DNA of 64,000 nt from Enterobacteria phage vB_EcoM_IME540, in the sequence record MT150133.1. One strand, 5' to 3'. Under the pieces are notes generated by a model, which was not told the origin of the DNA, searched no databases, and was given only the letters and a program-made list of their open reading frames with translations. Position 1 is the stretch's first letter; each line of letters opens with the position of its first letter. The position numbers and the translations under genes are program-made. This document shows, piece by piece, positions 2,535 to 52,361 of the stretch.

Positions 2535-2546
2535 TGTTTTGTGCAA

Positions 2547-3506
2547 TTATTTTTCGAAAGGACGAATTAAATGTTGGTTACGCTTAAACCGTTCAATGTA
2601 GTCGTTTTCACCTAAAGTCTTGTACATATTAACCACAGCTTGGTAGTTTTCCCATGCATAAGTGCGGAACCAACCTGAAGTGATTGAGGTGCACACTTTC
2701 TCAAGGGCCATATAGAAACTTAATGATGGTGAAATATTGAAGTCATTAGGAACCTGTGAACGTTCTAGTGCCAGGACACAAGTTTCTTCATACACACCAG
2801 CCAGTTTAATAGCTTCAGGCAAAGCCTCGAACTTCTCACGAGAGGTCATGACTTCAGAACCTTCCTTCATATAAAAGGTATATGCAGGGCGCCCTGCCAA
2901 TGCCACTGCTTCATGGATAGAGTCGTGGTCCAGAGTATAAATGGGATCATTAAAGAACGATGATTTGTTTACATCCAATTTAGGGTGGGAATAGCTCAAC
3001 GTTTCTTTTTGACGTTGCAACATAATTTCCTGGAGTTCTTCGTTAAGGGTGATACCTTTATTACGAAGGTATTTGATGTGGGACATGGTTTTCAAGAAGA
3101 ACGGATTATTCTTCAAGAAACGATGGGAGGTTTTGATAGCCAGACAGATATCAGGGGTTGCCCAATAGAAACCTGTAAGACGGTCCTTTTTAATATGATT
3201 TTCGGCATATTTCAGGAGACGATAACTTGAGGTGAAATCTTCGTCTTGAAGCTCACCGGTAATTTCTCGTACGTTAGTCAGGGCACGAACGATATAAGCT
3301 TCAAAATAGGTTTCTTTACCATTGTACATGCATTTAAAAGCCTGGACATCAGGGTTATCCACAGGAACATGGGCACCAAACATCCGAGCTTTAAAGTGAT
3401 TCCATGAGCCTTGGTCGGCAATGAAATCCCAATCAGAATTTTCGATATGCTTACTTTCAATCAGACCAGCGTGGTGCAGTGCACGAGAACCAATAACTAA
3501 CATCAT
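2547..3506 (-). CDS. hypothetical protein, 319 aa; possible Pol-beta-type nucleotidyltransferase-like motif
   Basis: Start at ATG 3506-3504 with RBS GAGGAAA; N-terminal IGSRALHHAGLIESKHIENSDWDFIAD loosely resembles the hG[GS]...DxD signature. Confidence 0.6.
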   Translation of the reverse strand: MMLVIGSRALHHAGLIESKHIENSDWDFIADQGSWNHFKARMFGAHVPVDNPDVQAFKCMYNGKETYFEAYIVRALTNVREITGELQDEDFTSSYRLLKYAENHIKKDRLTGFYWATPDICLAIKTSHRFLKNNPFFLKTMSHIKYLRNKGITLNEELQEIMLQRQKETLSYSHPKLDVNKSSFFNDPIYTLDHDSIHEAVALAGRPAYTFYMKEGSEVMTSREKFEALPEAIKLAGVYEETCVLALERSQVPNDFNISPSLSFYMALEKVCTSITSGWFRTYAWENYQAVVNMYKTLGENDYIERFKRNQHLIRPFEK

Positions 3507-3525
3507 AATATTTTCCTCAGTAAAC

Positions 3526-3765
3526 TTAAATTTCAGCGACGTAATCGTTATGCAATTCCCACATATCATCAGAATTATTCTTAATGATAGGAATTATCTC
3601 ATTAGAGATTTCTTCAGCATAAGGGTCATTGATACAGTGGGCATCTTCAAAACGAACACCGTAATCAGACTTCTTATAAGAGAAGCCATAAATCTTTTTA
3701 AACTTGGCGCGAGTAATGCGTACCGGTTCATTAGACTTATCGGACATCGGAGCGTAATACCACAT
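3526..3765 (-). CDS. hypothetical protein, 79 aa
   Basis: ATG 3765 preceded by RBS GAGGAG in conserved leader ACACAAACATGAGGAGAACAT. Confidence 0.55.
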   Translation of the reverse strand: MWYYAPMSDKSNEPVRITRAKFKKIYGFSYKKSDYGVRFEDAHCINDPYAEEISNEIIPIIKNNSDDMWELHNDYVAEI

Positions 3766-3792
3766 ATGTTCTCCTCATGTTTGTGTAGGGTA

Positions 3793-3821
3793 ATAGTAAC
3801 ATGATTTTCTAGAGTTGTACA
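3793..3821 (-). promoter_or_regulatory. early promoter (-35 TGTACA, -10 TACTAT) with conserved leader
   Basis: Minus strand TGTACAACTCTAGAAAATCATGTTACTATTACCCTACACAAACATGAGGAGAACAT-ATG; leader near-identical to the one at 62501-62557. Confidence 0.45.
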
Positions 3822-4138
3822 TCACTTCTGCAATATTCTAAAAATAATTTATCATTGTCTACTGTATCCCAACGACGCCAAGACGGGTTCCAGACCAAAG
3901 CGTTGTCACCACAATCATTGAGCTTAAAATGGTCGTAGTACATAGCTATGTGTCTAGTCTCGTCACCAGAGAACCCCAGTATAGGCTCACCGTGGGTGTG
4001 ATACATATGATGGTGCATTGAGAGGTCGCATTTGTAAAACATCTCACGTTTACCACGAACGAACAAGAAGGCCTGTCCATTCATATAGAATTCTTTATTT
4101 GTTTTCAAAAGATATTTGAATACTGAATCTTTATGCAT
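3809..4138 (-). CDS. hypothetical protein, 109 aa, His-rich (MHHHMYHTHGE)
   Basis: Start at internal ATG 4138-4136 with strong RBS AGGAGGA. Confidence 0.5.
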   Translation of the reverse strand: MHKDSVFKYLLKTNKEFYMNGQAFLFVRGKREMFYKCDLSMHHHMYHTHGEPILGFSGDETRHIAMYYDHFKLNDCGDNALVWNPSWRRWDTVDNDKLFLEYCRSDVQL

Positions 4139-4168
4139 AAGTCCTCCTACCACATCCATGTGGTTAAA

Positions 4169-8715: not shown

Positions 8716-8790
8716 TGGTATCCCGCCCTGGGATCGAACCAGGACCGCAAACTTAGAAGGATCGTATGCTATCCATTACACCAGCGGGAC
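8716..8790 (-). tRNA. tRNA-Arg (anticodon UCU), CCA encoded
   Basis: Minus strand GTCCCGC...TTCTAAG...CCTGGTTCGATCCCAGGGCGGGATACCA; 7-bp acceptor stem, T-arm CCTGG-TTCGATC-CCAGG, anticodon loop CTTCTAA. Confidence 0.85.
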
Positions 8791-9502: not shown

Positions 9503-9573
9503 TGGCCCTGGGTGGAATCGAACCACCATCCAGCGATTATGAGTCGCTCGCTTGACCGTCCAGCTACAGGGCC
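9503..9573 (-). tRNA. tRNA with CAU anticodon (Met, or Ile if lysidine-modified), CCA not encoded
   Basis: Minus strand GGCCCTG...AGCGA-CTCATAA-TCGCT...GGTGG-TTCGATT-CCACC-CAGGGCC-A. Confidence 0.8.
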
Positions 9574-39841: not shown

Positions 39842-40333
39842 ATGGAACTTACGGATATCACTAGGGCCTTCGAGTCAGGTGACTTTGCACGCCCTAACCT
39901 TTTCGAAGTGGAAATTCCATTTCTGGGTAAAAACTTTAGCTTTAAATGTAAAGCAGCACCTATGCCGGCAGGCATTGTAGAAAAAGTACCGGTTGGCTAC
40001 ATGAACCGTAAAATTAACGTAGCCGGTGACCGTACGTTTGATGATTGGACCATTACCATTTATAACGATGATGCACATGACACCCGTCAAGCAATTGTCG
40101 ATTGGCAGAATCTCTGTCACGGTATGACCAATGAAATTACCGGTGCAGCACCTGCAGAATATAAGAAACAAGCAGTAGTTCGCCAGTTCCATCGTGACGG
40201 CAAGACTGTGACCAAAGAAGTTACAATTTACGGCTTATGGCCTACTAACGTTGGTGAAGTCCAGATGGACTGGGACTCGAATAACGAGGTAGAAACATTT
40301 GAAAGCACATTTGCTATTGACTGGTGGGAATAA
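39842..40333 (+). CDS. 19: tail tube protein gp19
   Basis: 163 aa ...TRAFESGDFARPNLFEVEIPFLGKNFSFKCKAAPMPAGIVEK..., matches T4 gp19. Confidence 0.95.
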   Translation: MELTDITRAFESGDFARPNLFEVEIPFLGKNFSFKCKAAPMPAGIVEKVPVGYMNRKINVAGDRTFDDWTITIYNDDAHDTRQAIVDWQNLCHGMTNEITGAAPAEYKKQAVVRQFHRDGKTVTKEVTIYGLWPTNVGEVQMDWDSNNEVETFESTFAIDWWE

Positions 40334-40400: not shown

Positions 40401-40982
40401 ATGTATTGTACTTACTTAACCATATACACGGGGTCTAAACTACCCCGTCGTTATATTGGCTCAACATACGTTGAAAGGATTCTCAAAGAAGGATATAATG
40501 GTTCTGTATTATCCCAAGCATATAAAAAGATTTGGAATCTAGAACGTAAAGAAAATCCGCACCTTTTCAAAACCAGAATTTTATCTTTATTTGAAACCGA
40601 TAAAGAAGCTCGTATAGCTGAGAAAGAGCTTCAAATAAAGTATAATGTAGTTAAATCTAAAAACTATATAAATATGTCATTAGCTCAGCCTGACGGGTTC
40701 TTTGGAATGTCTCGTAAAGGGATTCCAATGAGTGAACATGCCAAACAGCTACAAAGAGATTGTAGGTTAGGTAAAAAGAGGCCTGAACATTCTAAAGCTC
40801 TAAAAGGACGTAAGCGACCAGACCAAGCCAAAGCTATGTCTGGTGAAGGTAATCCGATGTTTGGTAAAGAACATCCGGCTAAAGGCAAAAAGATTAATCA
40901 GCCAAGGATGATTTGCCCTATCTGTGGTGTTGAATCAACTCGTTCGGCTATAACACGTTATCACAAACATGAAAATGAATGA
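40401..40982 (+). CDS. GIY-YIG-type homing endonuclease (seg-like) with NUMOD-like repeats and C-terminal zinc finger, inserted between genes 19 and 20
   Basis: 193 aa; N-terminal YLTIYTGSKLPRRYIGSTY; repeated basic GKKRPEHSKA / GKEHPAKGKK; CPICGV...H. Confidence 0.7.
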   Translation: MYCTYLTIYTGSKLPRRYIGSTYVERILKEGYNGSVLSQAYKKIWNLERKENPHLFKTRILSLFETDKEARIAEKELQIKYNVVKSKNYINMSLAQPDGFFGMSRKGIPMSEHAKQLQRDCRLGKKRPEHSKALKGRKRPDQAKAMSGEGNPMFGKEHPAKGKKINQPRMICPICGVESTRSAITRYHKHENE

Positions 40983-41039: not shown

Positions 41040-42614
41040 ATGGCAAACTTTAATACAATATTAAGTTTTCTTAAGCCATGGGCTAATGAAGACGAAAAAG
41101 AATATAAACAACAAATTAATAACAATTTAGAGTCTGTCACCGCACCTAAGCTTGATGATGGCGCTCGCGAAATTGAGACACAAGAGCAAAATATTCCTTA
41201 TAATGCTCTTATGCAACAGATGTTTGGTAGTAATGAGCCTGAAGTTAAAAATACCAGGGAACTTATTGATACCTACCGTAATTTAATGAACAACTATGAA
41301 GTCGACAATGCCGTACAGGAAATTGTGTCTGACGCTATTGTCTATGAGGATGATAAAGAAGTAGTTGCATTGAATTTAGACGGGACAGAATTTAGTCAAG
41401 CAATTAAAGATAAAATCTTGGCCGAATTCAGTGAAGTTTTAAACCTTTTAAATTTCCAACGTAAAGGTACTGACCATTTCCAACGCTGGTATGTAGACTC
41501 AAGAATTTTCTTTCATAAAATTATAAACCCTAAAAAAATGAAAGATGGCGTACAAGAGCTTCGTCGCTTAGACCCACGCCAAGTCCAATATATTCGTGAA
41601 ATCGTTACACGTATGGAAGATGGCGTTAAAGTTGTAGACGGATATCGCGAGTTTTTCGTTTATGATACAGGCCATGAAAGTTATTGCGCTGATGGACGCA
41701 TTTATTCAGCCGGGACTAAAGTTAAAATTCCTCGTGCTGCAGTGGTTTATGCTCATTCTGGATTATTAGATTGTTGTGGTAAAAACATCATTGGCTATTT
41801 GCAACGTGCTATTAAGCCTGCAAACCAGCTTAAATTGATGGAAGACGCAATGGTCATCTACCGTATTACACGTGCTCCTGACCGTCGTGTGTTTTATATC
41901 GATACAGGTAATATGCCTTCACGTAAGGCTGCAGCACAAATGCAACATATCATGAACACGATGAAAAACCGTGTGGTGTATGATGCTTCGACAGGTAAAA
42001 TTAAAAACCAACAACACAATATGTCCATGACTGAAGACTATTGGTTGCAACGTCGTGATGGTAAAGCGGTAACAGAAGTTGATACAATGCCAGGTGCTAC
42101 TGGTATGAGTGATATGGATGACGTTCTTTATTTCCGCACAGCACTTTACCGTGCGTTGCGTGTTCCTGAATCACGTATCCCTAGCGAGTCTAATTCTGGT
42201 GTTATGTTTGATGCCGGTACAGCAATCACTCGTGACGAATTAAAATTCTCTAAATGGATTCGTCAACTACAAAACAAATTTGAAGAAATTTTCCTAGACC
42301 CGTTAAAAACAAACCTCATTCTTAAAAAGATTATTACAGAAGATGAGTGGGAAAAGGAAATAAATAATATTAAAGTTACGTTTAACCGTGATAGCTATTT
42401 CAGTGAAATGAAAGATGCTGAAATCATGGAACGCAGAATCAATATGCTAACGATGGCTGAACCATTTATTGGTAAGTATATTTCACATCAAACGGCTATG
42501 AAAGATTTCCTCCAAATGACCGACGAAGAAATTAATCAAGAAGCTAAGCAAATTGAAGAAGAGTCTAAAGAGGCTCGTTTCCAAAACCCAGATGAAGAAG
42601 AAGAGGATTTCTAA
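41040..42614 (+). CDS. 20: portal vertex protein gp20
   Basis: 524 aa (T4 gp20 is 524 aa); conserved position. Confidence 0.95.
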
Positions 42615-43952: not shown

Positions 43953-44768
43953 ATGCTTAAAGAACAACTGATCGCCGAAGCACAGAATATTGATGCTTCC
44001 GTTGCTCTTGACAGTATTTTCGAATCAGTTAATATTTCTCCGGAAGCAAAAGAAACTTTCGGCACTGTATTCGAAGCTACCGTCAAGCAACACGCCGTGA
44101 AACTGGCTGAATCTCACATCGCTAAAATCGCTGAAAAAGCGGAAGAAGAAGTCGAGAAAAATAAAGAAGAAGCTGAAGAAAAAGCCGATAAGAAAATCCA
44201 AGAAGCTGCCGGTCGTTTCCTTGACCACGTTGCTAAAGAATGGATGGCTGAAAACCAGCTGGCTGTTGATAAAGGTATTAAAGCCGAACTGTTCGAATCC
44301 ATGTTGATGGGTATGAAAGAACTGTTTGTTGAACACAATGTGGTTGTTCCAGAAGAAGCAGTAGATGTTGTTGCTGAAATGGAAGAAGAACTCCAAGAGC
44401 AGAAAGATGAAACCGCTCGTCTGTTCGAAGAAGTTGGTAAGCGCGACGCGTATATTAATTACGTACAGCGTGAAGTTGCTGTTACGGAAGCAACTAAAGA
44501 CCTGACTGAATCCCAAAAAGAAAAAGTTAGTTCTCTGGTAGAAGGCATGGATTATTCCGATGCATTCGGTAAAAAAATTGGCGCTATTGTTGAAATGGTT
44601 AAAGGTCAATCTGACGTTGAAAACCCAATCACCGAAGCCGCTATAAATAAAAATGTAGACGATGCTGCGGCACTGAATTACATTTCAGAAGCAGTTGAAG
44701 AAAAAGGCGCTAAGCCTACCCTGTCCTTCGCGGACCTGTCTGCAATCGCAGCATCACGAATTTCTTAA
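43953..44768 (+). CDS. 22: prohead core scaffold protein gp22
   Basis: 271 aa, acidic coiled-coil protein; conserved position. Confidence 0.9.
   Translation: MLKEQLIAEAQNIDASVALDSIFESVNISPEAKETFGTVFEATVKQHAVKLAESHIAKIAEKAEEEVEKNKEEAEEKADKKIQEAAGRFLDHVAKEWMAENQLAVDKGIKAELFESMLMGMKELFVEHNVVVPEEAVDVVAEMEEELQEQKDETARLFEEVGKRDAYINYVQREVAVTEATKDLTESQKEKVSSLVEGMDYSDAFGKKIGAIVEMVKGQSDVENPITEAAINKNVDDAAALNYISEAVEEKGAKPTLSFADLSAIAASRIS
44642..44649 (+). promoter_or_regulatory. candidate late promoter TATAAATA for gene 23, inside the 3' end of gene 22
   Basis: Exact consensus ~140 nt upstream of gene 23 ATG; no consensus box in the short 22-23 spacer. Confidence 0.4.
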
Positions 44769-44789
44769 TTTAATAAGGTTATACAACAC

Positions 44790-46349
44790 ATGAAAAAGAA
44801 TGCATTAGTTCAAAAATGGTCCGCTCTGCTGGAAAACGAAGCCCTTCCTGAAATCGTGGGTGCTTCTAAACAAGCTATCATTGCTAAAATTTTCGAAAAC
44901 CAGGAACAAGATATTCTGACCGCTCCTGAATACCGTGACGAAAAAATCTCCGAAGCATTTGGTTCTTTCCTGACCGAAGCTGAAATTGGCGGTGACCACG
45001 GTTATGATGCTACCAATATCGCAGCTGGCCAGACTTCTGGTGCTGTAACTCAGATTGGGCCGGCAGTAATGGGTATGGTTCGTCGTGCTATTCCTCATCT
45101 GATTGCTTTTGATATTTGTGGTGTTCAGCCTCTGAATAACCCTACCGGCCAGGTATTTGCCCTTCGTGCAGTTTATGGTAAAGACCCTATCGCTGCTGGC
45201 GCTAAAGAAGCTTTCCATCCGATGTATTCTCCGGACGCTATGTTCTCTGGTCAGGGCGCTGCTGAAACTTTCGAAGCACTGGCTGCAAGCAAAGTTCTGG
45301 AAGTTGGTAAAATTTATTCTCACTTCTTCGAAGCTACCGGTGCTGCACACTTCCAGGCTGTTGAAGCCGTAACCGTTGATGCTGCTGCTACTGATGCCGC
45401 TAAACTGGATGCTGCTATTACCGCTTTGATTGAAGCTGGTAAGTTGGCTGAATTGGCTGAAGGTATGGCTACTTCTATCGCTGAACTTCAGGAAGGCTTT
45501 AACGGTTCCCAGGACAACCCGTGGAACGAAATGGGCTTCCGCATCGACAAACAAGTTATCGAAGCTAAATCCCGTCAGCTGAAAGCAAGCTATTCTATCG
45601 AACTGGCACAGGACCTTCGTGCAGTACACGGTATGGATGCAGATGCTGAACTGTCCGGTATCCTTGCTACCGAAATTATGCTCGAAATCAACCGTGAAGT
45701 TATCGATTGGATTAACTACTCTGCACAGGTTGGTAAATCTGGTATGACCAACACCGTTGGCGCTAAAGCTGGTGTGTTTGACTTCCAGGACCCGATTGAT
45801 ATCCGTGGTGCTCGTTGGGCCGGTGAGAGCTTTAAAGCCCTTCTGTTCCAGATTGATAAAGAAGCAGCCGAAATCGCTCGTCAGACCGGTCGTGGTGCTG
45901 GTAACTTCATCATCGCTTCCCGTAACGTAGTTAACGTACTGGCTGCAGTTGATACTTCTGTAAGTTATGCAGCTCAAGGTCTGGGTCAAGGTTTCAACGT
46001 TGACACAACCAAAGCAGTATTTGCCGGTGTTCTTGGTGGTAAATATCGCGTTTACATCGACCAGTATGCACGTTCCGATTACTTCACCATCGGTTATAAA
46101 GGCGCTAACGAAATGGACGCAGGTATCTACTATGCTCCGTACGTTGCACTGACCCCGCTGCGTGGTTCCGATCCGAAGAACTTCCAACCGGTAATGGGCT
46201 TCAAAACTCGTTACGGTATCGGTATCAACCCGTTCGCTGACCCGTCTGCACAGGCTCCTACCAAACGTATTCAGAGCGGTATGCCTGACATCGTTAACAG
46301 CCTTGGTCTGAATGGTTACTTCCGTCGCGTATATGTTAAAGGTATCTAA
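44790..46349 (+). CDS. 23: major capsid protein gp23
   Basis: 519 aa; extensive match to T4 gp23. Confidence 0.95.
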   Translation: MKKNALVQKWSALLENEALPEIVGASKQAIIAKIFENQEQDILTAPEYRDEKISEAFGSFLTEAEIGGDHGYDATNIAAGQTSGAVTQIGPAVMGMVRRAIPHLIAFDICGVQPLNNPTGQVFALRAVYGKDPIAAGAKEAFHPMYSPDAMFSGQGAAETFEALAASKVLEVGKIYSHFFEATGAAHFQAVEAVTVDAAATDAAKLDAAITALIEAGKLAELAEGMATSIAELQEGFNGSQDNPWNEMGFRIDKQVIEAKSRQLKASYSIELAQDLRAVHGMDADAELSGILATEIMLEINREVIDWINYSAQVGKSGMTNTVGAKAGVFDFQDPIDIRGARWAGESFKALLFQIDKEAAEIARQTGRGAGNFIIASRNVVNVLAAVDTSVSYAAQGLGQGFNVDTTKAVFAGVLGGKYRVYIDQYARSDYFTIGYKGANEMDAGIYYAPYVALTPLRGSDPKNFQPVMGFKTRYGIGINPFADPSAQAPTKRIQSGMPDIVNSLGLNGYFRRVYVKGI

Positions 46350-46365
46350 GATATAACCTTATTAT

Positions 46366-46383
46366 GGGAGACTTCGGTCTCCC
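46366..46383. terminator. stem-loop GGGAGAC-TTCG-GTCTCCC after gene 23
   Basis: Perfect 7-bp stem with UUCG-type loop followed by T-rich sequence; same stem as at 6331-6348. Confidence 0.6.
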
Positions 46384-46398
46384 ATTCTTGTTTCTGTA

Positions 46399-46665
46399 TT
46401 ATGCAATCTTAACTCGGCGGTTGATGATATCACGGAAGTCAATACGATTTTCTTGGATTTTCAGCCAGTTACCAGATTTGTCTTTGGTATGGGTAGAGTA
46501 TTCACCGTTCCACCAGAAGTCGGTAGCATAAGCCATGGCTTCGTATTTCTTAACTAAGGCATTCACTGCATTACCATTAGGATTGTTACCGAATTTTTCT
46601 ACCAGAGCTTTGATGTCTTTATCAAGAGCGGAAAGAGTAGTACGAATAAAGTTTAACTTGTTCAT
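46399..46665 (-). CDS. hypothetical protein, 88 aa, on the opposite strand between genes 23 and 24
   Basis: Start at ATG 46665-46663 with RBS GAGGAG; own early promoter cassette upstream. Confidence 0.5.
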   Translation of the reverse strand: MNKLNFIRTTLSALDKDIKALVEKFGNNPNGNAVNALVKKYEAMAYATDFWWNGEYSTHTKDKSGNWLKIQENRIDFRDIINRRVKIA

Positions 46666-46694
46666 TTTTAATCTCCTCATGTTTTGATAGGTCT

Positions 46695-46724
46695 ATAGTA
46701 ACATGTGAGAATCTTGCTGTAAAC
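46695..46724 (-). promoter_or_regulatory. early promoter cassette (-35 GTTTAC, 18 bp, -10 TACTAT)
   Basis: Minus strand GTTTACAGCAAGATTCTCACATGTTACTATAGACCTATCAAAACATGAGGAGATTAAAA-ATG. Confidence 0.5.
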
Positions 46725-46730
46725 AACTTT

Positions 46731-46738
46731 TATAAATA
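46731..46738 (+). promoter_or_regulatory. late promoter TATAAATA for gene 24
   Basis: Exact consensus 29 nt upstream of ATG 46767, back-to-back with the minus-strand early promoter. Confidence 0.6.
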
Positions 46739-46766
46739 AACATATACCCTCAATAAGGAAAGCGCA

Positions 46767-48050
46767 ATGGCAAAGATTAACGAATTACTGCGCGAGTCAA
46801 CAACTACTTCCAGCAACTCATTGGGTCGCCCTAATCTTGTTGCTTTGACCCGTGCTACAACCAAATTGATTTACCGTGATATTATCGCCGAACAACGTAC
46901 TAGCCAGCCTATTGCTGCACTGTATGGTGTCAAATATCTTACCCCTGATAATGAATTTAGTTTCCAGACAGGTGCCTCTTATGGTGGTGAAGTTGGTTCT
47001 AAAGACCGTGAAACTATCCCAGAACTCACAGATAAGGCCCAGGCGATTGCTCAGGGTGAATATTTCAAGTACCAGAATGTGGTTTATAAGGCTCTTAAAG
47101 CAAGCCCACTCGCGTCCACTAGCGCCACAGAATTGGCTGATGCTCTTCAAGAAGGTTTAGTGTCATTAACATGTCGTCTGGTTCCTGATGCTGCCCATAC
47201 CACTAAATTTGAAGCGAGTGATGTAGAAATCTCTGATGCTGTATTCCAGGTTAATAAATGGAATGCTCCGGTTAAGACCCGTAAATTGAAGACGGCTTTG
47301 ACTGTAGAATTAGCGCAGGATATGGAATCAAATGGCTTTGACGCGCCGGCGTTCTTAGAAGACCTCTTGGCTACAGTAATGGCAGATGAAATTAATAAAG
47401 ACGTTCTGCAATCTCTAATAACCGTATCCAAACGTTATAAAGTTACTGGTGTATCTGATAACGGCATCATCGATTTGTCTTATGACAGTGCTCCTGAATC
47501 TGCACGTAAACTTTATGAACTCGTTTGTGAGATGAATTCTGAAATCCAGAAAACTACTTCTTATTCTGGCACGTTTGTTGTGGCTTCAAGTCGTGTGGCT
47601 GCAATGCTTGCAGGTTCTGGCTGGTTAAAACATAAACCCGAAGATAATAATTGGCTTCCGGAAACTGCATACGGATATTTGTTGAATGGTCTGCCTCTGT
47701 TTTGTGACGTTAACAGTCCATTAGATTATGTTACCGTTGGTGTTAAAGAGAATTACGGCGGTAATGAAGTTGTCGGTTCTATTTTCTACGCTCCCTATAC
47801 CGAAGGCTTAGATTTAGATGACCAAGAACACGTCGGTGCTTATAAGGTTATTGTTGACCCGGATTCATTACAACCTTCTATTTCTCTGATGGTTCGTTAT
47901 GCACTATCAGCTAACCCGTACACCGTGGCTAAAGACGATAAAGAAGCTCGTGTTATCGATGCAACCAATATGGATTTAATGGCTGGACAGAGCAATATGT
48001 CTTATCTGGTTGGCGTTAAACTTCCGGCAATTATTTACGAGGCTGATTAA
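46767..48050 (+). CDS. 24: head vertex protein gp24
   Basis: 427 aa MAKINELLRESTTTSSNSLGRPNLVALTRATTKLIYRD..., matches T4 gp24. Confidence 0.9.
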   Translation: MAKINELLRESTTTSSNSLGRPNLVALTRATTKLIYRDIIAEQRTSQPIAALYGVKYLTPDNEFSFQTGASYGGEVGSKDRETIPELTDKAQAIAQGEYFKYQNVVYKALKASPLASTSATELADALQEGLVSLTCRLVPDAAHTTKFEASDVEISDAVFQVNKWNAPVKTRKLKTALTVELAQDMESNGFDAPAFLEDLLATVMADEINKDVLQSLITVSKRYKVTGVSDNGIIDLSYDSAPESARKLYELVCEMNSEIQKTTSYSGTFVVASSRVAAMLAGSGWLKHKPEDNNWLPETAYGYLLNGLPLFCDVNSPLDYVTVGVKENYGGNEVVGSIFYAPYTEGLDLDDQEHVGAYKVIVDPDSLQPSISLMVRYALSANPYTVAKDDKEARVIDATNMDLMAGQSNMSYLVGVKLPAIIYEAD

Positions 48051-49330
48051 TGTCTAAGATTGTAGACCTAATTAAAGAATCCACATTGACGGCTGCCAGC
48101 TCGGTTGGCCGTCCTGCTCTTCTTTCATACACCCAAGCAACTAATAAACGAATCTTTAAAGCCCTAGTTGCTGAACAAAAAACAAATCAACCGGTTGCTG
48201 CTCTGTATGGGGTACGTGTACTGAATCCTGACGACAAAATGACTTATCTTGGTGGAGCAACATTTGCGGGCCAGATTGGTATGACGGAACGTGAAAATAT
48301 TCCAGAATTTACTGATTCATCTACAGCTTATGCGGTCGGTGATATGTTCCAGTTTGAAAGCGTAGTGTTTAAAGTTCTAGAAGCATCTCCTTTCGCCGGA
48401 ACCACAGAAACCAACCTCAGCGAAGTTATTTCTGAAGCAGTGGCAGCCGGCCATATCCGTATGGCGTCGGATGCTGCTATTACTTCTAAATTTGAACAAG
48501 GCCATCCTGAAATTGCTGAAACCGGATTCCGTATCGACAAATGGCAATCTGAAGTTAAATCGCGTAAACTGAAAACTTCATTGACAGTCGAATTAGCCCA
48601 AGACCTAGAATCTAACGGGTTTAATGCTCCTAATTTCGTTGAAAATCTGCTAGGCATTCAAATGGCAGAAGAAATTAATAAGGATGTATTACAGTCATTA
48701 ATTACCGTGAGCTCTCGTTTTAAAGTCCAGGGTGTTTCTGAAAAGGGTGTATTAGACCTTACCAACCCTCGCTACGATAATGCCCAGGACCGTGCTCGCA
48801 CATTATATTATTATATGTGTGAGATGAACTCTGCCGTCCAACGACAGACTTCTTTTGCCGGGACTTATGCAGTAGCTAGTTCTCGTTGTGCTGCTATTCT
48901 CGCCGCCTCTGGTTGGGTTGAGAAAAAGGAAGACCAGGACGAATTGGCTTATGGTATATTAAAGAATGGCCTACCACTTTATGCTGATATGAATAGTCCA
49001 TGTGATTATGTTATTGTTGGTGTAAATGCCCAGATGGGTGAAGGACAGACGGTCGCATCTTTATATTATGCGCCTTATACGGAAGGTTTGAATGTGGTTG
49101 ACGAAGAAGGTGATACTTCAGTTGGTGAATTTAAGGTTATTGTTGACCCGGAAAGCTTACAACCTACAGTAGCATTGCTTGCTCGTTATGCATTGACTGC
49201 AAACCCTTATACCGTCGCTAAGGACGATAAAGAAGCCCGCATTATTGATGGTTCTGATATGGACAAAATGGCTAATCAAAGTCAATTGAGTTCTTATCTC
49301 GGCGTAAAATTACCGCCTTTAGAAAAATAA
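48050..49330 (+). CDS. second gp24-family head vertex paralog
   Basis: 426 aa MSKIVDLIKESTLTAASSVGRPALLSYTQATNKRIFKALVAEQKTNQP...; collinear with the upstream gp24 at roughly half of positions identical by eye; TAATG-coupled. Confidence 0.85.
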   Translation: MSKIVDLIKESTLTAASSVGRPALLSYTQATNKRIFKALVAEQKTNQPVAALYGVRVLNPDDKMTYLGGATFAGQIGMTERENIPEFTDSSTAYAVGDMFQFESVVFKVLEASPFAGTTETNLSEVISEAVAAGHIRMASDAAITSKFEQGHPEIAETGFRIDKWQSEVKSRKLKTSLTVELAQDLESNGFNAPNFVENLLGIQMAEEINKDVLQSLITVSSRFKVQGVSEKGVLDLTNPRYDNAQDRARTLYYYMCEMNSAVQRQTSFAGTYAVASSRCAAILAASGWVEKKEDQDELAYGILKNGLPLYADMNSPCDYVIVGVNAQMGEGQTVASLYYAPYTEGLNVVDEEGDTSVGEFKVIVDPESLQPTVALLARYALTANPYTVAKDDKEARIIDGSDMDKMANQSQLSSYLGVKLPPLEK

Positions 49331-49352
49331 AAGGGACCTTGCGGCCCTTTAT
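49329..49352. terminator. bidirectional terminator hairpin between the gp24 paralog and rnlB
   Basis: AAGGGACC-TTGC-GGCCCTTT with T-rich flank on both strands. Confidence 0.5.
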
Positions 49353-49355
49353 CAT

Positions 49356-50363
49356 TTATTTGGATACTAGTTCAATCCATACGGCTCGTAGGGTATCTTT
49401 TACACACTCAACGAGCTGCTTTTTAACTTCAACAGGATTTTCTGCATCAGTTAATTCTAATTCTTCACGGGCAGCTTCTTCTAAGATATCTTGGACTGCC
49501 AAGCCCATTACCTTTCCAAAATCCTTCGGCGATACTTCGCCAATCTTACTGATAACGTTGTTAATACGGTTAACAGTCACATAATCAGTGAATTGCCACA
49601 TCAAATCCATATCGTCTTGGGACAAAACTACAGCCGCCTTAATAGGCTTATCAGACTTTTTCTTCTCGCTGAATTTAGAGTTCTTACATTTAATCGCCAC
49701 GCGATTTCCATTAGGAAGCCAGATAGGAATATCGGGTTTAAGTACAAAGCCTTCAGCCGTGAATACTTTACCTTCTACCTTAGGAATAAAGTCTGTAGAG
49801 TTTGCAATAGTTAGGCCTGCGTTATCAACCGCAAAATTATAATCAGGAATAACTGAATCAAAGTCATTAGGTAATTTAATAAGGTCTTCAAAGCTACCAG
49901 TAGCCAGACATGGCGCGACCTTAAACTTATGGATAATACAGAAGGCTTCCATCAATGTATCGGTTAGAACAGATTCTGAACCATCTTCTTTAGTAACTCG
50001 GATATCGAACACATAAAAGTCTTTATCGCCGTAGTCCACATTCTTCTGGATGCCTGTCCCAGCGAATTCGCCATAAATCTGGTATGACTGATAATTAATC
50101 GATTCAATTAGATGTTGAACTGATTTAATAGAATCAGCGTAGTTCTTAAGTACAATTTCATAACCATAGAAATCTTCAGCAGGGAGGATAGGGCCAGTGC
50201 GCTTGGCGCATGTGACTGCGTCACGTTCTATGATTAAACTAAAGTTGGTTCCATGAATCTTCTCACGTGCTACCCATTCACCACCAGTCAAACCGTTAGT
50301 ACGGAGTTTTTCGATAAACTTACTGTTGTAGTGGTTTTCGAGACTGCTATATTTCTTGAACAT
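49356..50363 (-). CDS. rnlB: RNA ligase 2
   Basis: 335 aa; [20 protein letters not shown]...[10 protein letters not shown] (KxHG adenylation motif)...[22 protein letters not shown], matches T4 Rnl2 nearly residue for residue. Confidence 0.95.
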
Positions 50364-50477
50364 AAATCACCATAATAAATATAATTAAATAGAAGAGCTA
50401 GTAGTCTTCTGTCACCAAGCCAAATGGGTTAACGGAAGGACCTAGACCCATTATATCACACCTAAATTTAAAGCATA

Positions 50478-50687
50478 TTACTTTGAACTAGAACGCGCTT
50501 TGCGCCGAACCTTGTTGTTCAATCTTTTACGATAAACAACCTTTTCTTTCGCTTTAAATTTGGCCTTGGCTTGTTCTACATCAACCCATGCTTTGGCCAT
50601 GTCCTTAGCGGTCCCACCCATTTTTTTAGCAATTTCTATAAAATTCAACCCAGATTCGTGTAAAAAATGTACTTTAACCTTATCCAT
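50478..50687 (-). CDS. small basic protein with possible helix-turn-helix, 69 aa
   Basis: Start at internal ATG 50687 with RBS GAGAGAA; segment GLNFIEIAKKMGGTAKDMAKAW looks HTH-like; Lys/Arg-rich C-terminus. Confidence 0.45.
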   Translation of the reverse strand: MDKVKVHFLHESGLNFIEIAKKMGGTAKDMAKAWVDVEQAKAKFKAKEKVVYRKRLNNKVRRKARSSSK

Positions 50688-50770
50688 AACAATTCTCTCG
50701 TTGAGTTGGTAAACCCATCTTAACATAGAATTTTTAACTTGTAAACAGGAATTTTGTACTTTAACGCAAA

Positions 50771-50788
50771 ATGGGCCTTGCGGCCCAT
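50771..50788. terminator. hairpin ATGGGCC-TTGC-GGCCCAT downstream of hoc
   Basis: Perfect 7-bp stem with tetraloop. Confidence 0.5.
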
Positions 50789-50790
50789 TA

Positions 50791-51639
50791 TTAATAAATG
50801 TAATCGTATATAATACCAGCTTCTAAAGCGGTGCGATGAATAATTCGACCATTACGAGATTCTTGTACATCAACCTCTGAATAGTCGGTAATCATTTTTT
50901 GAAGTGTATATCGGTGCAAATAATACGGGCTATCCGGGTCATCTGTTTTCCAGTCTTTGCCTTCAAGAGTCATTTTCTGGATTTCATCCATAACCCACCA
51001 ACCAACCCAAATATATGCTGAATTACGAACAGGGAGTGGATGAACGTAAGGTAATTCGCCATCCGGAACCGGTGCGACTTTAGCCGTGACTGTTACATTA
51101 CCGGTTTTTGTGACAGTCGCCGGGTTATAATCAGTCGCCGAAACCACAACAGAAACTTCAATAACCTGCGAACCTTCAGTGCTTGTATCGATTGCTAGAG
51201 TATCCGTGGTGCCAACTACAGGAGAACCGTCTTTCTTCCAAGAATAGGCAAAAGTAGCACCAGCAGGAGCGCCGACCACATCCGCTTTAAAAGAAGCTGG
51301 AGTGCCTTCCGGAACATTAATCGAAGCTGGGGTTAATGTCACAGAAACACCGGAAATGGTTTTATTCTGGATAGTTAAAGTTGTTTCAGCTTCAGCTGTT
51401 TCTGGTTCGCCGTCCGCCGGTGTAGTTGTTGCAACAACTTTAATAGTCTTGCTGCCTGCCGGGCCAACAGCAACATAATCCATTGCAGCAGTCACAGAAG
51501 ATTGAGGAACGCCATCAACGGTCCAGACAAATGATTCGGTACCTTCAGCTGCAGCACCGGAACCGGTCGCAGTGAAATTGGTTGTTGCTCCAATAACGGC
51601 CGTAGCCGCCAAAGGAGCCATATCTACGGTATAAGCCAT
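50791..51639 (-). CDS. hoc: Hoc outer capsid decoration protein, short form
   Basis: 282 aa; Ig-like domains plus C-terminal GELPYVHPLPVRNSAYIWVGWWVMDEIQKM...DWKTDDPDSPYYLHRYTLQKM matching the T4 Hoc capsid-binding domain. Confidence 0.85.
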   Translation of the reverse strand: MAYTVDMAPLAATAVIGATTNFTATGSGAAAEGTESFVWTVDGVPQSSVTAAMDYVAVGPAGSKTIKVVATTTPADGEPETAEAETTLTIQNKTISGVSVTLTPASINVPEGTPASFKADVVGAPAGATFAYSWKKDGSPVVGTTDTLAIDTSTEGSQVIEVSVVVSATDYNPATVTKTGNVTVTAKVAPVPDGELPYVHPLPVRNSAYIWVGWWVMDEIQKMTLEGKDWKTDDPDSPYYLHRYTLQKMITDYSEVDVQESRNGRIIHRTALEAGIIYDYIY

Positions 51640-51648
51640 AATAAACCC

Positions 51649-52320
51649 TTATTTTAAAGTGACAAAAGATGAGTTACGAGTTTCACGTACTAATACTGAA
51701 CCATTACGATTAATGTAATAAATCAGACTAAATAATGTTTGGTGGGCAGAAGGATGTTGGAAAGCAGTTGGACGTTCTTTCCAATCCGGAGTCTCAGAAA
51801 TCCATTGGTAAATCCACCAAGGAACGGTGCAATAACCTGGGTTCTTACCGATAAGCAAAAGATTAGGACTGAAGTTTTCAGGTAAAGAGAATACAGGTTT
51901 TTCAGATTCAACAACCTTGGCTATAGCCCCTTTGAATTTCTCTTCGTCAAATGGAACATCCTCTTCGATAATCTCTACCTTAGGAAGTTCGGCTACCTCA
52001 ACGACTTCTACTGCAGCCTCAGGGGCATCGAACAACAGGGTGGCTTCTTCTTTAGCTGGTTCAGCACCATCAACAAATTCGTTAGCACCTGTAAGTTCGT
52101 CGGCAGCATCAATCAAATCAGAAATGGACAACCCTTCGGTTTCTGGAAGTGGTTCGTCAGCCAAGGCTTTAAAGCCTTCAGAGATATCGATAATCAAATT
52201 ATCAAACGAACGGGTTTTCTTAAGTTTTAAACCGAACTGTTCGCCGTATTCGATTAACTTAGCTTTAGCTTCTTTTTTATCTTCGAGTGCACGAAGCTCT
52301 TCAATATATTGAGTATCCAT
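51649..52320 (-). CDS. inh: Inh-like prohead protease inhibitor
   Basis: 223 aa; acidic N-terminal part; C-terminus CTVPWWIYQWISETPDWKERP...ETRNSSF shares the Hoc-type motif; same position as T4 inh. Confidence 0.65.
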   Translation of the reverse strand: MDTQYIEELRALEDKKEAKAKLIEYGEQFGLKLKKTRSFDNLIIDISEGFKALADEPLPETEGLSISDLIDAADELTGANEFVDGAEPAKEEATLLFDAPEAAVEVVEVAELPKVEIIEEDVPFDEEKFKGAIAKVVESEKPVFSLPENFSPNLLLIGKNPGYCTVPWWIYQWISETPDWKERPTAFQHPSAHQTLFSLIYYINRNGSVLVRETRNSSFVTLK

Positions 52321-52339
52321 AATTAGTCTCTTGTTGGTG

Positions 52340-52361
52340 TATAAATATAACTATATTTATA
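52340..52361. promoter_or_regulatory. divergent late promoters: TATAAATA on plus (52340-52347, uvsW) and on minus (52354-52361, inh)
   Basis: Two exact consensus boxes back to back in the inh-uvsW intergenic region. Confidence 0.55.

Follow-up and report, generated by a model that had tools for sequence, protein, structure and literature searches.

Large prolate capsids have phage T4 as their reference system. The textbook case of a major-capsid copy specialised for vertices is T4 gp24, whose pentamers occupy the 11 non-portal vertices of the capsid, with about 55 copies per virion. This protein is considered a gp23 duplicate optimised for pentamers (PMC9958956; PMC10580926), and loses 10 N-terminal residues on maturation (PMC9958956; PMC9546572). 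T4 and about 92% of the T4-like records have one copy of gp24, whereas two coupled copies lie in the DNA described here. Such a pair is already annotated in public genomes since the JS98 record, under the names 24a/24b in JS98, JS10 and IME08, 24(1)/24(2) in vB_EcoM-VR7, and “capsid vertex protein I/II” in the VR5 and VR20 records; these records name the genes only. The JS98 genome paper reportedly notes the duplication of g24. In the literature covered by our full-text search, no account of the function of the second copy or of the evolution of the pair was found, nor were virion proteomics or cryo-EM results for any pair-bearing phage, and a second gene 24 goes unmentioned in the T4-genomes review (PMC2993671), the T4 head review and the F48 paper (PMC6163469), among others.

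The stretch analysed (64,000 nucleotides of Enterobacteria phage vB_EcoM_IME540, record MT150133.1; hereafter, the window) belongs to Dhakavirus and is 99.7% identical to phage Bp7. Its list of open reading frames contains two adjoining + strand ORFs, exactly the two collinear, back-to-back gp24-family genes of 427 and 426 aa that an initial annotation of the sequence had proposed. We will refer to them as c1 and c2. BLASTP aligns both products with 55% identity and 77% positives over 428 columns (E = 3e-176), far above chance and in agreement with the earlier impression that roughly half of the positions are identical; the remark that T4 has a single gene 24 is likewise borne out by the RB10 and RB69 loci, with one gene 24 at the same position. 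The order of the head cluster is gp20, gp67, gp68, gp21, gp22, gp23, a minus-strand ORF, c1, c2, rnlB and, further on, hoc. Both the location downstream of gene 23 and the late transcription signal TATAAATA upstream of c1 fit the gp24 family. The features of the locus are the following:

46364-46385, + strand: terminator-like hairpin and T-run after gene 23 (9-bp stem, 5 G-C pairs, TCTTGTTTCT tail)
46731-46738, + strand: T4 late-promoter motif TATAAATA, 29 nt upstream of the c1 ATG
46755-46759, + strand: AAGGA, putative ribosome-binding site of c1, read from the sequence, with 7-nt spacing to the ATG
46767-48050, + strand: c1, named 24a in JS98; the canonical gp24 of capsid vertices, 427 aa, carrying LLRE↓S (residues 7-11)
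48039-48042, + strand: GAGG, putative ribosome-binding site (Shine-Dalgarno) of c2, inside the 3' end of c1, 7 nt from the c2 ATG
48048-48052, + strand: TAATG, stop/start overlap from c1 to c2, as read in the sequence
48050-49330, + strand: c2, named 24b in JS98; the second, diverged paralogue of the vertex protein, 426 aa, carrying LIKE↓S (residues 7-11)
49334-49347, no strand assigned: G+C-rich hairpin GGACCTTGCGGCCC following c2, with T-runs on both strands

The order and context of the pair are the same in Bp7, whose two head vertex proteins are 100% (c1) and 99.8% (c2) identical to those of the window, and in JS98 (EF469154; c1 95%, c2 91%). No difference of substance separates the pairs of JS98, JS10, IME08, VR7, VR5, VR20 and Bp7 from that of the window, which is another isolate.

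Sequence comparison confirms c1 and c2 as full-length gp24 homologues, nearer to gp24 than to gp23. In phmmer searches of PDB chains, T4 gp24 (1YUE) is matched by c1 over residues 1-424 (E = 8e-198) and by c2 over residues 1-423 (E = 2e-150), whereas gp23 chains reach only about 1e-11 for both; the Gp23/Gp24 capsid family PF07068 gives 330 bits for c1 and 324 bits for c2 (gathering cutoff 24.4), and the head family phrog_138 gives E-values of 2e-131 and 1.8e-122, respectively. Identity to T4-type gp24 is 70% for c1 and 56-57% for c2, and the pair shares with T4 gp24 (PDB 1YUE, 5VF3, 7VS5; PF07068) its length, the 10-residue propeptide motif, the position after gene 23 and the late-promoter motif. 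A predicted cleavage motif, L-[LI]-x-E↓S, stands at the T4 position in the ten c1 and the ten c2 sequences compared, and the mature T4 gp24 chain in 5VF3 begins at residue 11. The AF2 monomer model of c2 has low overall confidence (pLDDT 60.7, with 82-87 in the I-domain stretch), and was therefore used for the fold match alone, with no residue mapping; its best PDB match is T4 gp24* chain 5vf3_a (TM 0.74-0.76, E = 1.5e-38), next come 1YUE and 7VRT, and gp23 chains give a TM of about 0.5. Because these matches go together with 56-70% sequence identity to 1YUE, we accept an HK97-type fold with the T4-specific insertion (I) domain as the predicted structure.

The motif TATAAATA, which we take to be the T4 late-promoter consensus, occurs 20 times in the whole window against 7.6 expected; the copy at 46731-46738 is the only one on the + strand within 44649 to 52340, and is thus the sole late-promoter candidate for both c1 and c2. 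It is also found 33-37 nt 5' of c1 in JS98, VR7, S16, F48 and two metagenome pair loci, and none was found ahead of c2, either in the window or in the other pair loci compared. The terminator-like hairpin at 46364-46385 would part the end of the gene 23 transcript from the gene 24 unit. At the junction of both genes, the final A of the c1 stop TAA (48048-48050) is the first base of the c2 ATG (48050-48052), and the gap or overlap between c1 and c2 ranges from -1 to +4 nt in 10 of 10 pair loci examined; the GAGG site of c2 is kept as GAGG in JS98, VR7 and S16. Given the TAATG overlap and the Shine-Dalgarno site, the translational coupling of c2 to c1 that had been proposed is real at the level of sequence. 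The GGACCTTGCGGCCC hairpin is likely a bidirectional terminator common to the + strand 24a-24b unit and the - strand rnlB, and an equivalent hairpin lies 3' of c2 in all ten pair loci.

The pair is present in about 120 of about 1,450 T4-like GenBank phage records (about 8%); 120 records have a c2-type best match and 117 extra gp24 places were counted, and among the matches listed a second gp24 accompanies the c2-type match in 40 of 40 records. A c2-type gene lacking a c1-type gene immediately upstream was found in none of the 13 or more contexts inspected. In the ten pair loci inspected (c2 identities of 66-100%), c2 abuts c1 downstream, with one promoter and one terminator, and this layout is common to Dhakavirus, Gaprivervirus, Gelderlandvirus, Marfavirus, the gene copy of Erwinia phage FBB1 and metagenome contigs. 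The hosts (Escherichia, Salmonella, Klebsiella, Erwinia, Yersinia) have no evident common niche.

On the other hand, some Dhakavirus and Gaprivervirus phages have one gp24 (MX01, AnYang, vB_EcoM_005, 04086, C6, KIT01 and SP18) in a head module near-isogenic with that of the window: nucleotide identity between single-gp24 species and the window is 98.8% for gp22, 97.8% for gp23, 96.2% for rnlB and 97.5% for hoc, and the flanking minus-strand ORF is common to both. In these species, a third-type gp24 of 426 aa, encoded by a 1.3-kb cassette in MX01, takes the place of the pair, which spans 2.6 kb; this third type shares 68% identity with c1, 55% with c2 and 74% with gp24 of Edwardsiella phage PEi20. 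With such near-isogenic relatives, the pair is therefore an exchangeable cassette and no structural necessity. For MX01, vB_EcoM_005 and SP18, an origin of the one gp24 as a c1/c2 chimera through unequal crossing-over was considered and rejected, as this gp24 is nearer to c1 than to c2 over most of its length and gp24 of PEi20 is closest overall. Dhakavirus MX01 and Gaprivervirus SP18 manage with one gp24 despite gp23 proteins 98.5% and 97.9% identical to that of the window, an observation that counts against the division of vertices preferred below.

The locus had been described as a tandem duplication of gene 24. The two tandem gp24 genes stand, but the duplication is not specific to this lineage, and neither mark of a recent event was found: the copies are not sisters, and their synonymous divergence is not low. 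The proportion of synonymous differences between c1 and c2 (pS) is 0.68-0.75 in four phages, that is, saturated, with 0.40 in the lowest 30-codon window, and no gene-conversion tracts between them were found in synonymous-site windows. In gp24 trees (NJ, 300 bootstraps), c1 falls among the single-copy gp24 proteins of T4, RB69, Karamvirus, Moonvirus and PEi20, and the c2 set forms its own clade (100% support), outside all Tevenvirinae gp24 and on a long stem branch. Quartet site patterns agree, with 16.5-22 sites for (c1,T4-type)|(c2,outgroup) vs 5.5-9.6 for (c1,c2); for c2 vs Jiaodavirus and Acinetobacter-phage gp24, the quartet counts are 9.4, 9.0 and 10.4 and node support is 39-52%. With 99% bootstrap, T4-type gp24 falls in between the c1 genes of the two pair-bearing groups, and lineages with no more than 63% identity between their c1 proteins share the pair. 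Since c1 and c2 are not nearest relatives and their synonymous sites are saturated, the pair is old, inherited or exchanged as a two-gene cassette; judged from these trees, c2 appears to be an ancient paralogue that split about as deep as the base of Tevenvirinae. A gp23 species tree was tried for counting losses against transfers and discarded (deep nodes with 4-66% bootstrap; S16 grouping with Moonvirus), because gp23 is too conserved and too mosaic for reconciliation. Foreign composition as a mark of recent horizontal gain was not found in c2, its G+C and GC3 being equal to those of c1 in every phage compared.

Invariance was assessed on 12 single-copy gp24 proteins, with 91 invariant columns and 177 conserved in at least 10 of the 12, to which ten c1 and ten c2 sequences were compared. 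The c1 set varies at 5 of the 91 invariant columns, none of these changes being fixed in all ten, and the c2 set at 18, keeping 73; fixed changes in the 177 conserved columns are 1 in c1 and 12 in c2. At eight of the invariant columns, eight or more of the ten c2 sequences carry a different residue; five of these columns lie within aa 11-81 (positions 27, 29, 34, 57 and 72, placed by alignment to T4 numbering and not on structure; one-sided Fisher p = 0.015), a modest enrichment, with p = 0.056 for a looser column set. At residues otherwise invariant, c2 differs from every single-copy gp24 by L27Y/F, R29Q/K, L34R, Y57V, Y72F, T204I and E335Q; c1 has Leu34 and Tyr57 where c2 has Arg34 and Val57. 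Compared with T4 gp24, c2 also has an NPR insert after T4 residue 239 (c2 residues 241-243), a GDT insert in the T4 348-359 loop (c2 residues 355-357) and a 4-residue deletion near T4 residue 296. Once the T4 head has expanded, gp24* residues 26-29 beta-pair with an I-domain linker of the adjacent gp24* of the same pentamer, and residues 60-68/63-81 are part of linker 1 (PMC9546572); the c2-only replacements thus seem to concentrate, modestly, in the region of the N-arm and of linker 1 of the I domain, where the T4 intra-pentamer contact is made. c1 and c2 are least alike in the I domain (39% identity, aa 82-142), with 68% identity in the spine-helix region (aa 161-240) and the C-terminal part (aa 360-427). 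Measured against orthologues, dN/dS is 0.04-0.17 for c1 and 0.02-0.08 for c2, with 0.05 for T4 vs RB69, which indicates that strong purifying selection is acting on both genes alike.

The best reading, to which we give about an even chance, is that c1 and c2 are two co-assembled vertex subunits, c2 being the specialised one. The promoter, c1, the overlapping c2 and the terminator would constitute one late bicistronic unit encoding two vertex (penton) subunits; with a single promoter and a conserved overlap, c1 and c2 should be made together whenever the operon is expressed, each with a 10-residue propeptide and a predicted prohead-protease site. Since co-production and the propeptide with its cleavage motif hold for both, both most likely enter the prohead shell and mature there. 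c1 would be the canonical gp24, and c2 an old paralogue always downstream of a c1-type gene, which may form its own co-adapted pentamers; the 11 non-portal vertices would then be divided, c2 taking part of them and c1 the remainder, and both jointly doing the job of T4's one gp24. The different vertex types suggested by the initial annotation would fit the changes specific to c2 around the site of intra-pentamer contact. In T4, all 55 gp24* subunits are structurally alike (PMC9546572), and two kinds of penton are therefore not obviously needed by a prolate head. The gp23/gp24 pair would represent the same logic one step earlier, a capsid paralogue kept beside the gene that gave rise to it and adapted to some of the lattice positions; gp23 and gp24 are about 20% identical with established hexamer and pentamer roles, whereas c1 and c2 are 55% identical and their division of labour is inferred.

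Alternatively, c1 and c2 could be interchangeable and partly redundant, fitting any of the 11 vertices and mixing randomly between or within pentons, with the second copy kept for robustness, capsid-surface (antigenic or environmental) heterogeneity or escape from a host factor; we consider this possible, if rather doubtful. T4 pentons are structurally equivalent (PMC9546572), one gp24 is enough in the near-isogenic relatives, one mRNA carries both genes, and the most divergent stretch between them is the I domain, which forms capsid-surface bumps (PMC9958956). However, dN/dS of about 0.05 on both copies, from Dhakavirus to Erwinia phages, would be rare under simple redundancy; the fixed replacements of c2 at single-copy-invariant residues fall in subunit-contact elements and not at the surface alone; and no locus inspected relies on c2 as its only vertex gene, an argument against c2 being sufficient by itself. 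We regard as unlikely that the paralogues occupy different fixed vertex classes (e.g., one apical vs ten shoulder vertices, or the portal-near cap ring vs the far ring) and that the two-gene state is ancestral for a large part of Tevenvirinae, the single gene 24 of T4 being a secondary simplification; the tree position of T4-type gp24, in between the c1 genes of the two pair-bearing groups, would fit such an ancestral state.

It is quite improbable that c2 is an accessory gp24-like protein and not a stoichiometric shell subunit, for instance helping in assembly or maturation, triggering or modulating the gp21 protease at vertices, or serving as a decoy. c2 is indeed the derived partner, by its excess of fixed changes and its long stem branch, and gp24 attachment has been proposed as the trigger of protease activation in T4 (PMC9958956), so a gp24 variant could tune that step; but c2 retains the full length, the propeptide, the cleavage motif, the spine-helix and C-terminal parts and most of the invariant columns, its model matches in-capsid gp24* best, and its sequence carries no sign of another fold or function than that of a penton subunit. 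A condition- or host-dependent alternative use, with one copy serving at some temperatures or hosts and the other elsewhere, had also been raised, and we find it very improbable. The pair-bearing VR5 and VR7 have reportedly been described as low-temperature phages. T4 gene 24 mutants affect capsid stability (PMC10580926), yet the sole late promoter, the lack of a promoter motif for c2 in the loci compared and the stop/start overlap conserved in 10 independent pair loci disfavour separate expression, and the hosts point to no shared niche. Finally, the tandem, same-strand, same-length layout is typical of a fresh duplicate; a recent in-situ duplication with one copy decaying toward loss is scarcely credible, being refuted by the saturated synonymous sites, the intact state of both genes in every genome examined (dN/dS 0.02-0.17), the non-sister trees and the sharing of the pair by lineages with such divergent c1.

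A second vertex protein has thus been long conserved in about 8% of the sequenced T4-like phages, including the therapy candidates JS98 and CLB_P2. For annotation purposes, c1 and c2 are distinct orthologue groups, neither to be merged nor called “major head protein”. The near-isogenic phages with the one-gene or the two-gene cassette are ready material for swaps. If the vertices are distinct, the pair would be a natural further symmetry-breaking specialisation of an icosahedral shell, and one easily approached by cryo-EM; if the paralogues sit in fixed vertex classes, the capsid would have three specialised HK97-fold shell proteins; and if c1 and c2 mix, the pair would be a model for the coexistence of paralogous capsomers.

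The window carries two genes of the gp24 (capsid vertex protein) family, here called c1 (gene 24a type) and c2 (gene 24b type), at exactly the coordinates and lengths of the initial annotation:

46767..48050, + strand, c1, ORF of 427 aa
48050..49330, + strand, c2, ORF of 426 aa

Both products match T4 gp24 over the whole length (PDB 1YUE; E = 8e-198 for c1, 2e-150 for c2) and score above 320 bits against Pfam PF07068, their match to the major capsid protein gp23 being much weaker (about 1e-11), and every gp24-family trait testable by sequence was found in both. The proteins share 55% identity and 77% positives over their full length (BLASTP, E = 3e-176), in line with the half of positions first estimated by eye; identity to T4-type gp24 is 70% for c1 and 56-57% for c2. 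An AlphaFold2 model of c2, of low confidence (pLDDT 60.7) and used for the fold match only, had in-capsid mature T4 gp24 (gp24*; 5vf3_a, TM 0.74-0.76) as best structural match. The proposed translational coupling of c2 to c1 holds at the sequence level, the last base of the c1 stop (TAA, 48048-48050) being the first base of the c2 ATG, with GAGG 7 nt 5' of it.

The pair sits in the T4 head gene cluster. By order and sizes, the genes 5' of it are read as gp19, a homing-endonuclease-like ORF, gp20, gp67, gp68, gp21, gp22 and gp23; those 3' of it, on the minus strand, are read as rnlB, a 24.3-like gene, hoc and inh, in agreement with the JS98 and MX01 annotations. In a megablast of 46300-49400, Escherichia phages vB_EcoM_FB, Bp7, E33, QL01 and others matched at 99.6-99.8% identity, JS98 and JS10 at 86-93%; these relatives belong to the genus Dhakavirus, subfamily Tevenvirinae. 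As an observation the pair is already known, since public records annotate it (more than 100 genomes) and the Bp7 products are 100% (c1) and 99.8% (c2) identical. It is named 24a/24b in JS98 (EF469154; the same feature as c1 + c2), JS10 and IME08, 24(1)/24(2) in VR7, capsid vertex protein I/II in VR5 and VR20, and two head vertex proteins in Bp7, QL01, WG01 and S16. No account of the pair, of how it arose or of what it does was found in the literature searched, the JS98 genome paper lying outside that search.

Further features of the window were recorded as follows:

46399-46680, - strand, 93-aa ORF between gene 23 and c1, phrog_6003 match
40401-40982, + strand, 193-aa ORF with homing-endonuclease PHROG matches (phrog_314, E = 1e-29; phrog_10820, E = 2e-28)
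50478-50726, - strand, 82-aa DUF2774 protein, gp24.3-like, between rnlB and hoc (PF11242, E = 8.5e-30)
8716-8790 and 9503-9573, - strand, tRNA-Arg and tRNA-Met genes (anticodons tct and cat, in that order)

The 93-aa ORF (phrog_6003, unknown function, E = 8e-50; no Pfam match) is orf173 of JS98 and is also carried by VR7, SP18, MX01 and vB_EcoM_005; the gene 23-gene 24 interval of T4-type, S16 and F48 loci holds no annotated gene. A segD-like homing-endonuclease gene adjoins this ORF in vB_EcoM_005, IME08 and IME341, and the interval between gene 23 and c1 is therefore an insertion hot spot beside an exchangeable gp24 cassette. The 193-aa ORF, flanked by ORFs taken as tail-tube gene 19 (39842-40333) and portal gene 20 (41040-42614), has a weak Pfam SegE GIY-YIG match below cutoff (17.6 bits vs. 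25), and is probably a mobile endonuclease inserted into the structural gene cluster. Between rnlB and the 24.3-like gene the window showed no gp24.2 homologue, in which T4-type phages, RB69 and VR7 differ.

The signals around the pair include TATAAATA, the T4 late-promoter motif, which occurs 20 times in the window (7.6 expected):

46731-46738, + strand, TATAAATA, 29 nt 5' of c1
46364-46385, hairpin with a T-run, 3' of gp23 (sequence scan)
49334-49347, hairpin with T-runs flanking on both strands, 3' of c2 (sequence scan)

A motif search of the window found no TATAAATA on the + strand from 46738 to 52340. This layout of promoter, overlap and hairpin recurs, with minor gaps, in ten loci carrying both genes: the motif lies 33-37 nt 5' of c1 in seven of the ten, is upstream of the presumed true c1 start in the FBB1-like locus, and has no exact match 5' of c1 in two metagenome loci; in none of the ten does it precede c2. 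The stop/start distance runs from -1 to +4 nt, and a G+C hairpin lies 3' of c2. By these signals, c1 and c2 form one late bicistronic unit, which argues against independent or condition-specific expression.

Phage records were searched by tblastn with c1, c2 and a divergent c2. A gp24 was found in about 1,090-1,450 records, varying with the E-value limit, and two separate gp24 places in 117-126. The divergent query returned 120 records with a c2-type best match (60-80% identity), and all 40 records listed among the c2-type matches had two gp24 places. Carriers include Dhakavirus, Gaprivervirus (VR5, VR7), Gelderlandvirus (S16, STML-198), Marfavirus (F48), Erwinia phages (Cronus, IT22, FBB1) and one Yersinia phage. 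Five more c2-type genes, 66-70% identical to that of the window and one of them the Erwinia phage FBB1 gene, were located on Logan read-assembly contigs, each directly 3' of another gp24-type gene, itself after gp23 wherever upstream sequence was present. No lone c2-type gene was found in the 40 listed records or in the gene contexts inspected.

Other genes stand 3' of the gp24 genes in several comparison loci:

L020 4890-6427, L023 5326-6841, L024 2634-4140 and L025 2676-4506, + strand, extra genes 3' of c2
L003 5586-6149, L004 4288-4464, L005 5563-6108 and L011 3815-4360, DprA-like gene

The former are two + strand genes (about 332-352 and about 165-279 aa) of the Erwinia/metagenome group, placed before the minus-strand rnlB block and with no Pfam match except a faint collagen match in L025; in Jiaodavirus JEC the equivalent place is taken by a + strand ORF of 263 aa (L008 3832-4623). 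All of these may be further head-associated genes. The DprA-like gene, between the last gp24 gene and rnlB, is present in S16, F48 (annotated as a short 58-aa remnant), kv_tblp2, Moonvirus and Jiaodavirus, and absent from the window, JS98, VR7 and T4-type phages.

Neighbour-joining trees built on Kimura distances with 300 bootstraps gather every c2 in one clade (100% bootstrap) on a long stem, outside the group of every single-copy Tevenvirinae gp24 and all c1. Quartet site patterns with five different outgroups agree, with 16.5-22 sites for (c1,T4-type)/(c2,outgroup), 5.5-9.6 for (c1,c2) and 4.9-10.9 for (c2,T4-type). The tandem duplication initially described thus stands as two adjoining homologues but is not recent, as c1 groups with T4-type gp24, c2 falls outside, and synonymous sites between them are saturated (pS 0.68-0.75). 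The c2 clade has two branches, Dhakavirus-to-Marfavirus and Erwinia/metagenome, and the c1 partners split likewise, with mean identities between the groups of 63% for c1 and 69% for c2. Erwinia-group c1 is sister (99% bootstrap) to a clade with T4, RB69, Karamvirus, Moonvirus, PEi20 and Dhakavirus-group c1; the pair is therefore at least as old as the split of T4 gp24 from c1. Where a lineage has a single copy, c2 was lost or a single-gene cassette came in. Trees and quartets favour no one placement of c2 with respect to the gp24 of Jiaodavirus and Acinetobacter phages, and gp23 was rejected as a species tree for weighing losses against transfers, being too conserved and too mosaic. Identities of 95% (c1) and 91% (c2) between the window and JS98, and of 89% and 94% between JS98 and VR7, were also observed; these discordant histories suggest recombination breakpoints within or between c1 and c2 across the Dhakavirus/Gaprivervirus boundary.

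Ten c1 and ten c2 were compared with 12 single-copy gp24, from T4-type to Krischvirus. At the 91 columns invariant in all 12, c1 varies at five, none fixed in all ten, and c2 at 18; at the 177 columns on which ten or more of the 12 agree, one change is fixed in c1 and twelve in c2 (L34R, K56R, Y57V, T68G, Y72F, Y108F, T204I, I214V, P244Q, Y267F, E335Q and K422P in T4 numbering). Eight universally invariant columns (27, 29, 34, 57, 72, 200, 204 and 335) are replaced in at least 8 of 10 c2, five of them within residues 11-81 (one-sided Fisher p = 0.015; p = 0.056 with a looser column set). In the expanded T4 head, gp24* residues 11-20 extend onto the neighbouring gp23 hexamer, residues 26-29 pair in parallel beta fashion with one or other of the two I-domain linkers (the paper does not specify which) of the next gp24* subunit around the pentamer, and residues 60-68/63-81 are part of linker 1 (PMC9546572). 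The c2-specific replacements therefore lie in and beside the N-arm strand, and in linker 1 or shortly before it. If linker 1 pairs with the strand, both sides of one intra-pentamer contact would be altered in c2. We infer that c2 subunits may be co-adapted to neighbour other c2 subunits, which would mean that c2 forms its own pentons, with no free mixing with c1.

A single gp24 occupies this position in Dhakavirus MX01, AnYang, vB_EcoM_005, 04086, C6, KIT01 and others (13 records), and in Gaprivervirus SP18:

L026 (MX01) 2860-4140 and L027 (SP18) 2535-3815, also in L016 and L017, third-type single gp24

MX01 and the window share 98.8% nucleotide identity in gp22, 97.8% in gp23, 96.2% in rnlB, 99.5% in 24.3 and 97.5% in hoc; MX01 gp24 shares only 68.7% with c1 and 60.9% with c2 (protein identity 68% to c1, 55% to c2 and 74% to PEi20 gp24). 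The third-type gp24 is closest to that of Edwardsiella phage PEi20 (72-74% identity), its flanks being 96-99% identical to the window; a c1/c2 chimera was excluded by sliding-window comparison. This is a clean cassette polymorphism within two genera, Dhakavirus and Gaprivervirus, so a near-identical gp23 lattice is closed by c1 + c2 or by one third-type gp24. Because near-identical gp23 also goes with the single gene, two vertex proteins are not geometrically necessary for this capsid. The literature searched gave no sign of earlier publication of this alternation in near-isogenic phages, of c2 as an ancient, separately evolving orthologue group never found alone, of c1 as the canonical copy, with T4-type gp24 nested among c1 genes, or of the clustering of private c2 substitutions in the N-arm/I-linker region.

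By the Nei-Gojobori method, dN/dS among c1 orthologues is 0.04-0.17 and among c2 orthologues 0.02-0.08 (T4-type vs. RB69 gp24, 0.05), and both genes are maintained by selection; a decaying recent duplicate is refuted. A scan in 30-codon windows gave no hint of gene conversion, and c1 and c2 do not differ in G+C or GC3. T4 gp24 loses 10 residues (PMC9958956, PMC9546572), and the mature chain in 5VF3 starts at residue 11; at this cut position L-[LI]-x-E followed by Ser is found in all ten c1 and all ten c2. Retention in both of a protease site used only inside the prohead is indirect evidence that c1 and c2 both enter the capsid shell; an accessory, non-shell role for c2 is improbable.

We propose that a late bicistronic operon would yield c1, the canonical vertex protein, and c2, a specialised old paralogue, that the prohead protease would process both, and that they would divide the 11 non-portal vertices between them. 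That both are functional, co-expressed vertex subunits is very probable; the proposal as a whole has roughly an even chance, and that c2 forms pentons of its own at some of the vertices is suggested only tentatively. Random mixing of c1 and c2, or their redundancy, would suit the facts that all T4 pentons are equivalent and that relatives with one gene are viable; it is unlikely, since c2 has long been conserved, has changed at contact sites and is never the sole vertex gene. The condition-dependent use raised initially is disfavoured by the operon structure, with TATAAATA before c1 only and the c1 stop overlapping the c2 start, and is very improbable. The pair is a genuine, conserved departure from the textbook capsid and not a new kind of system.
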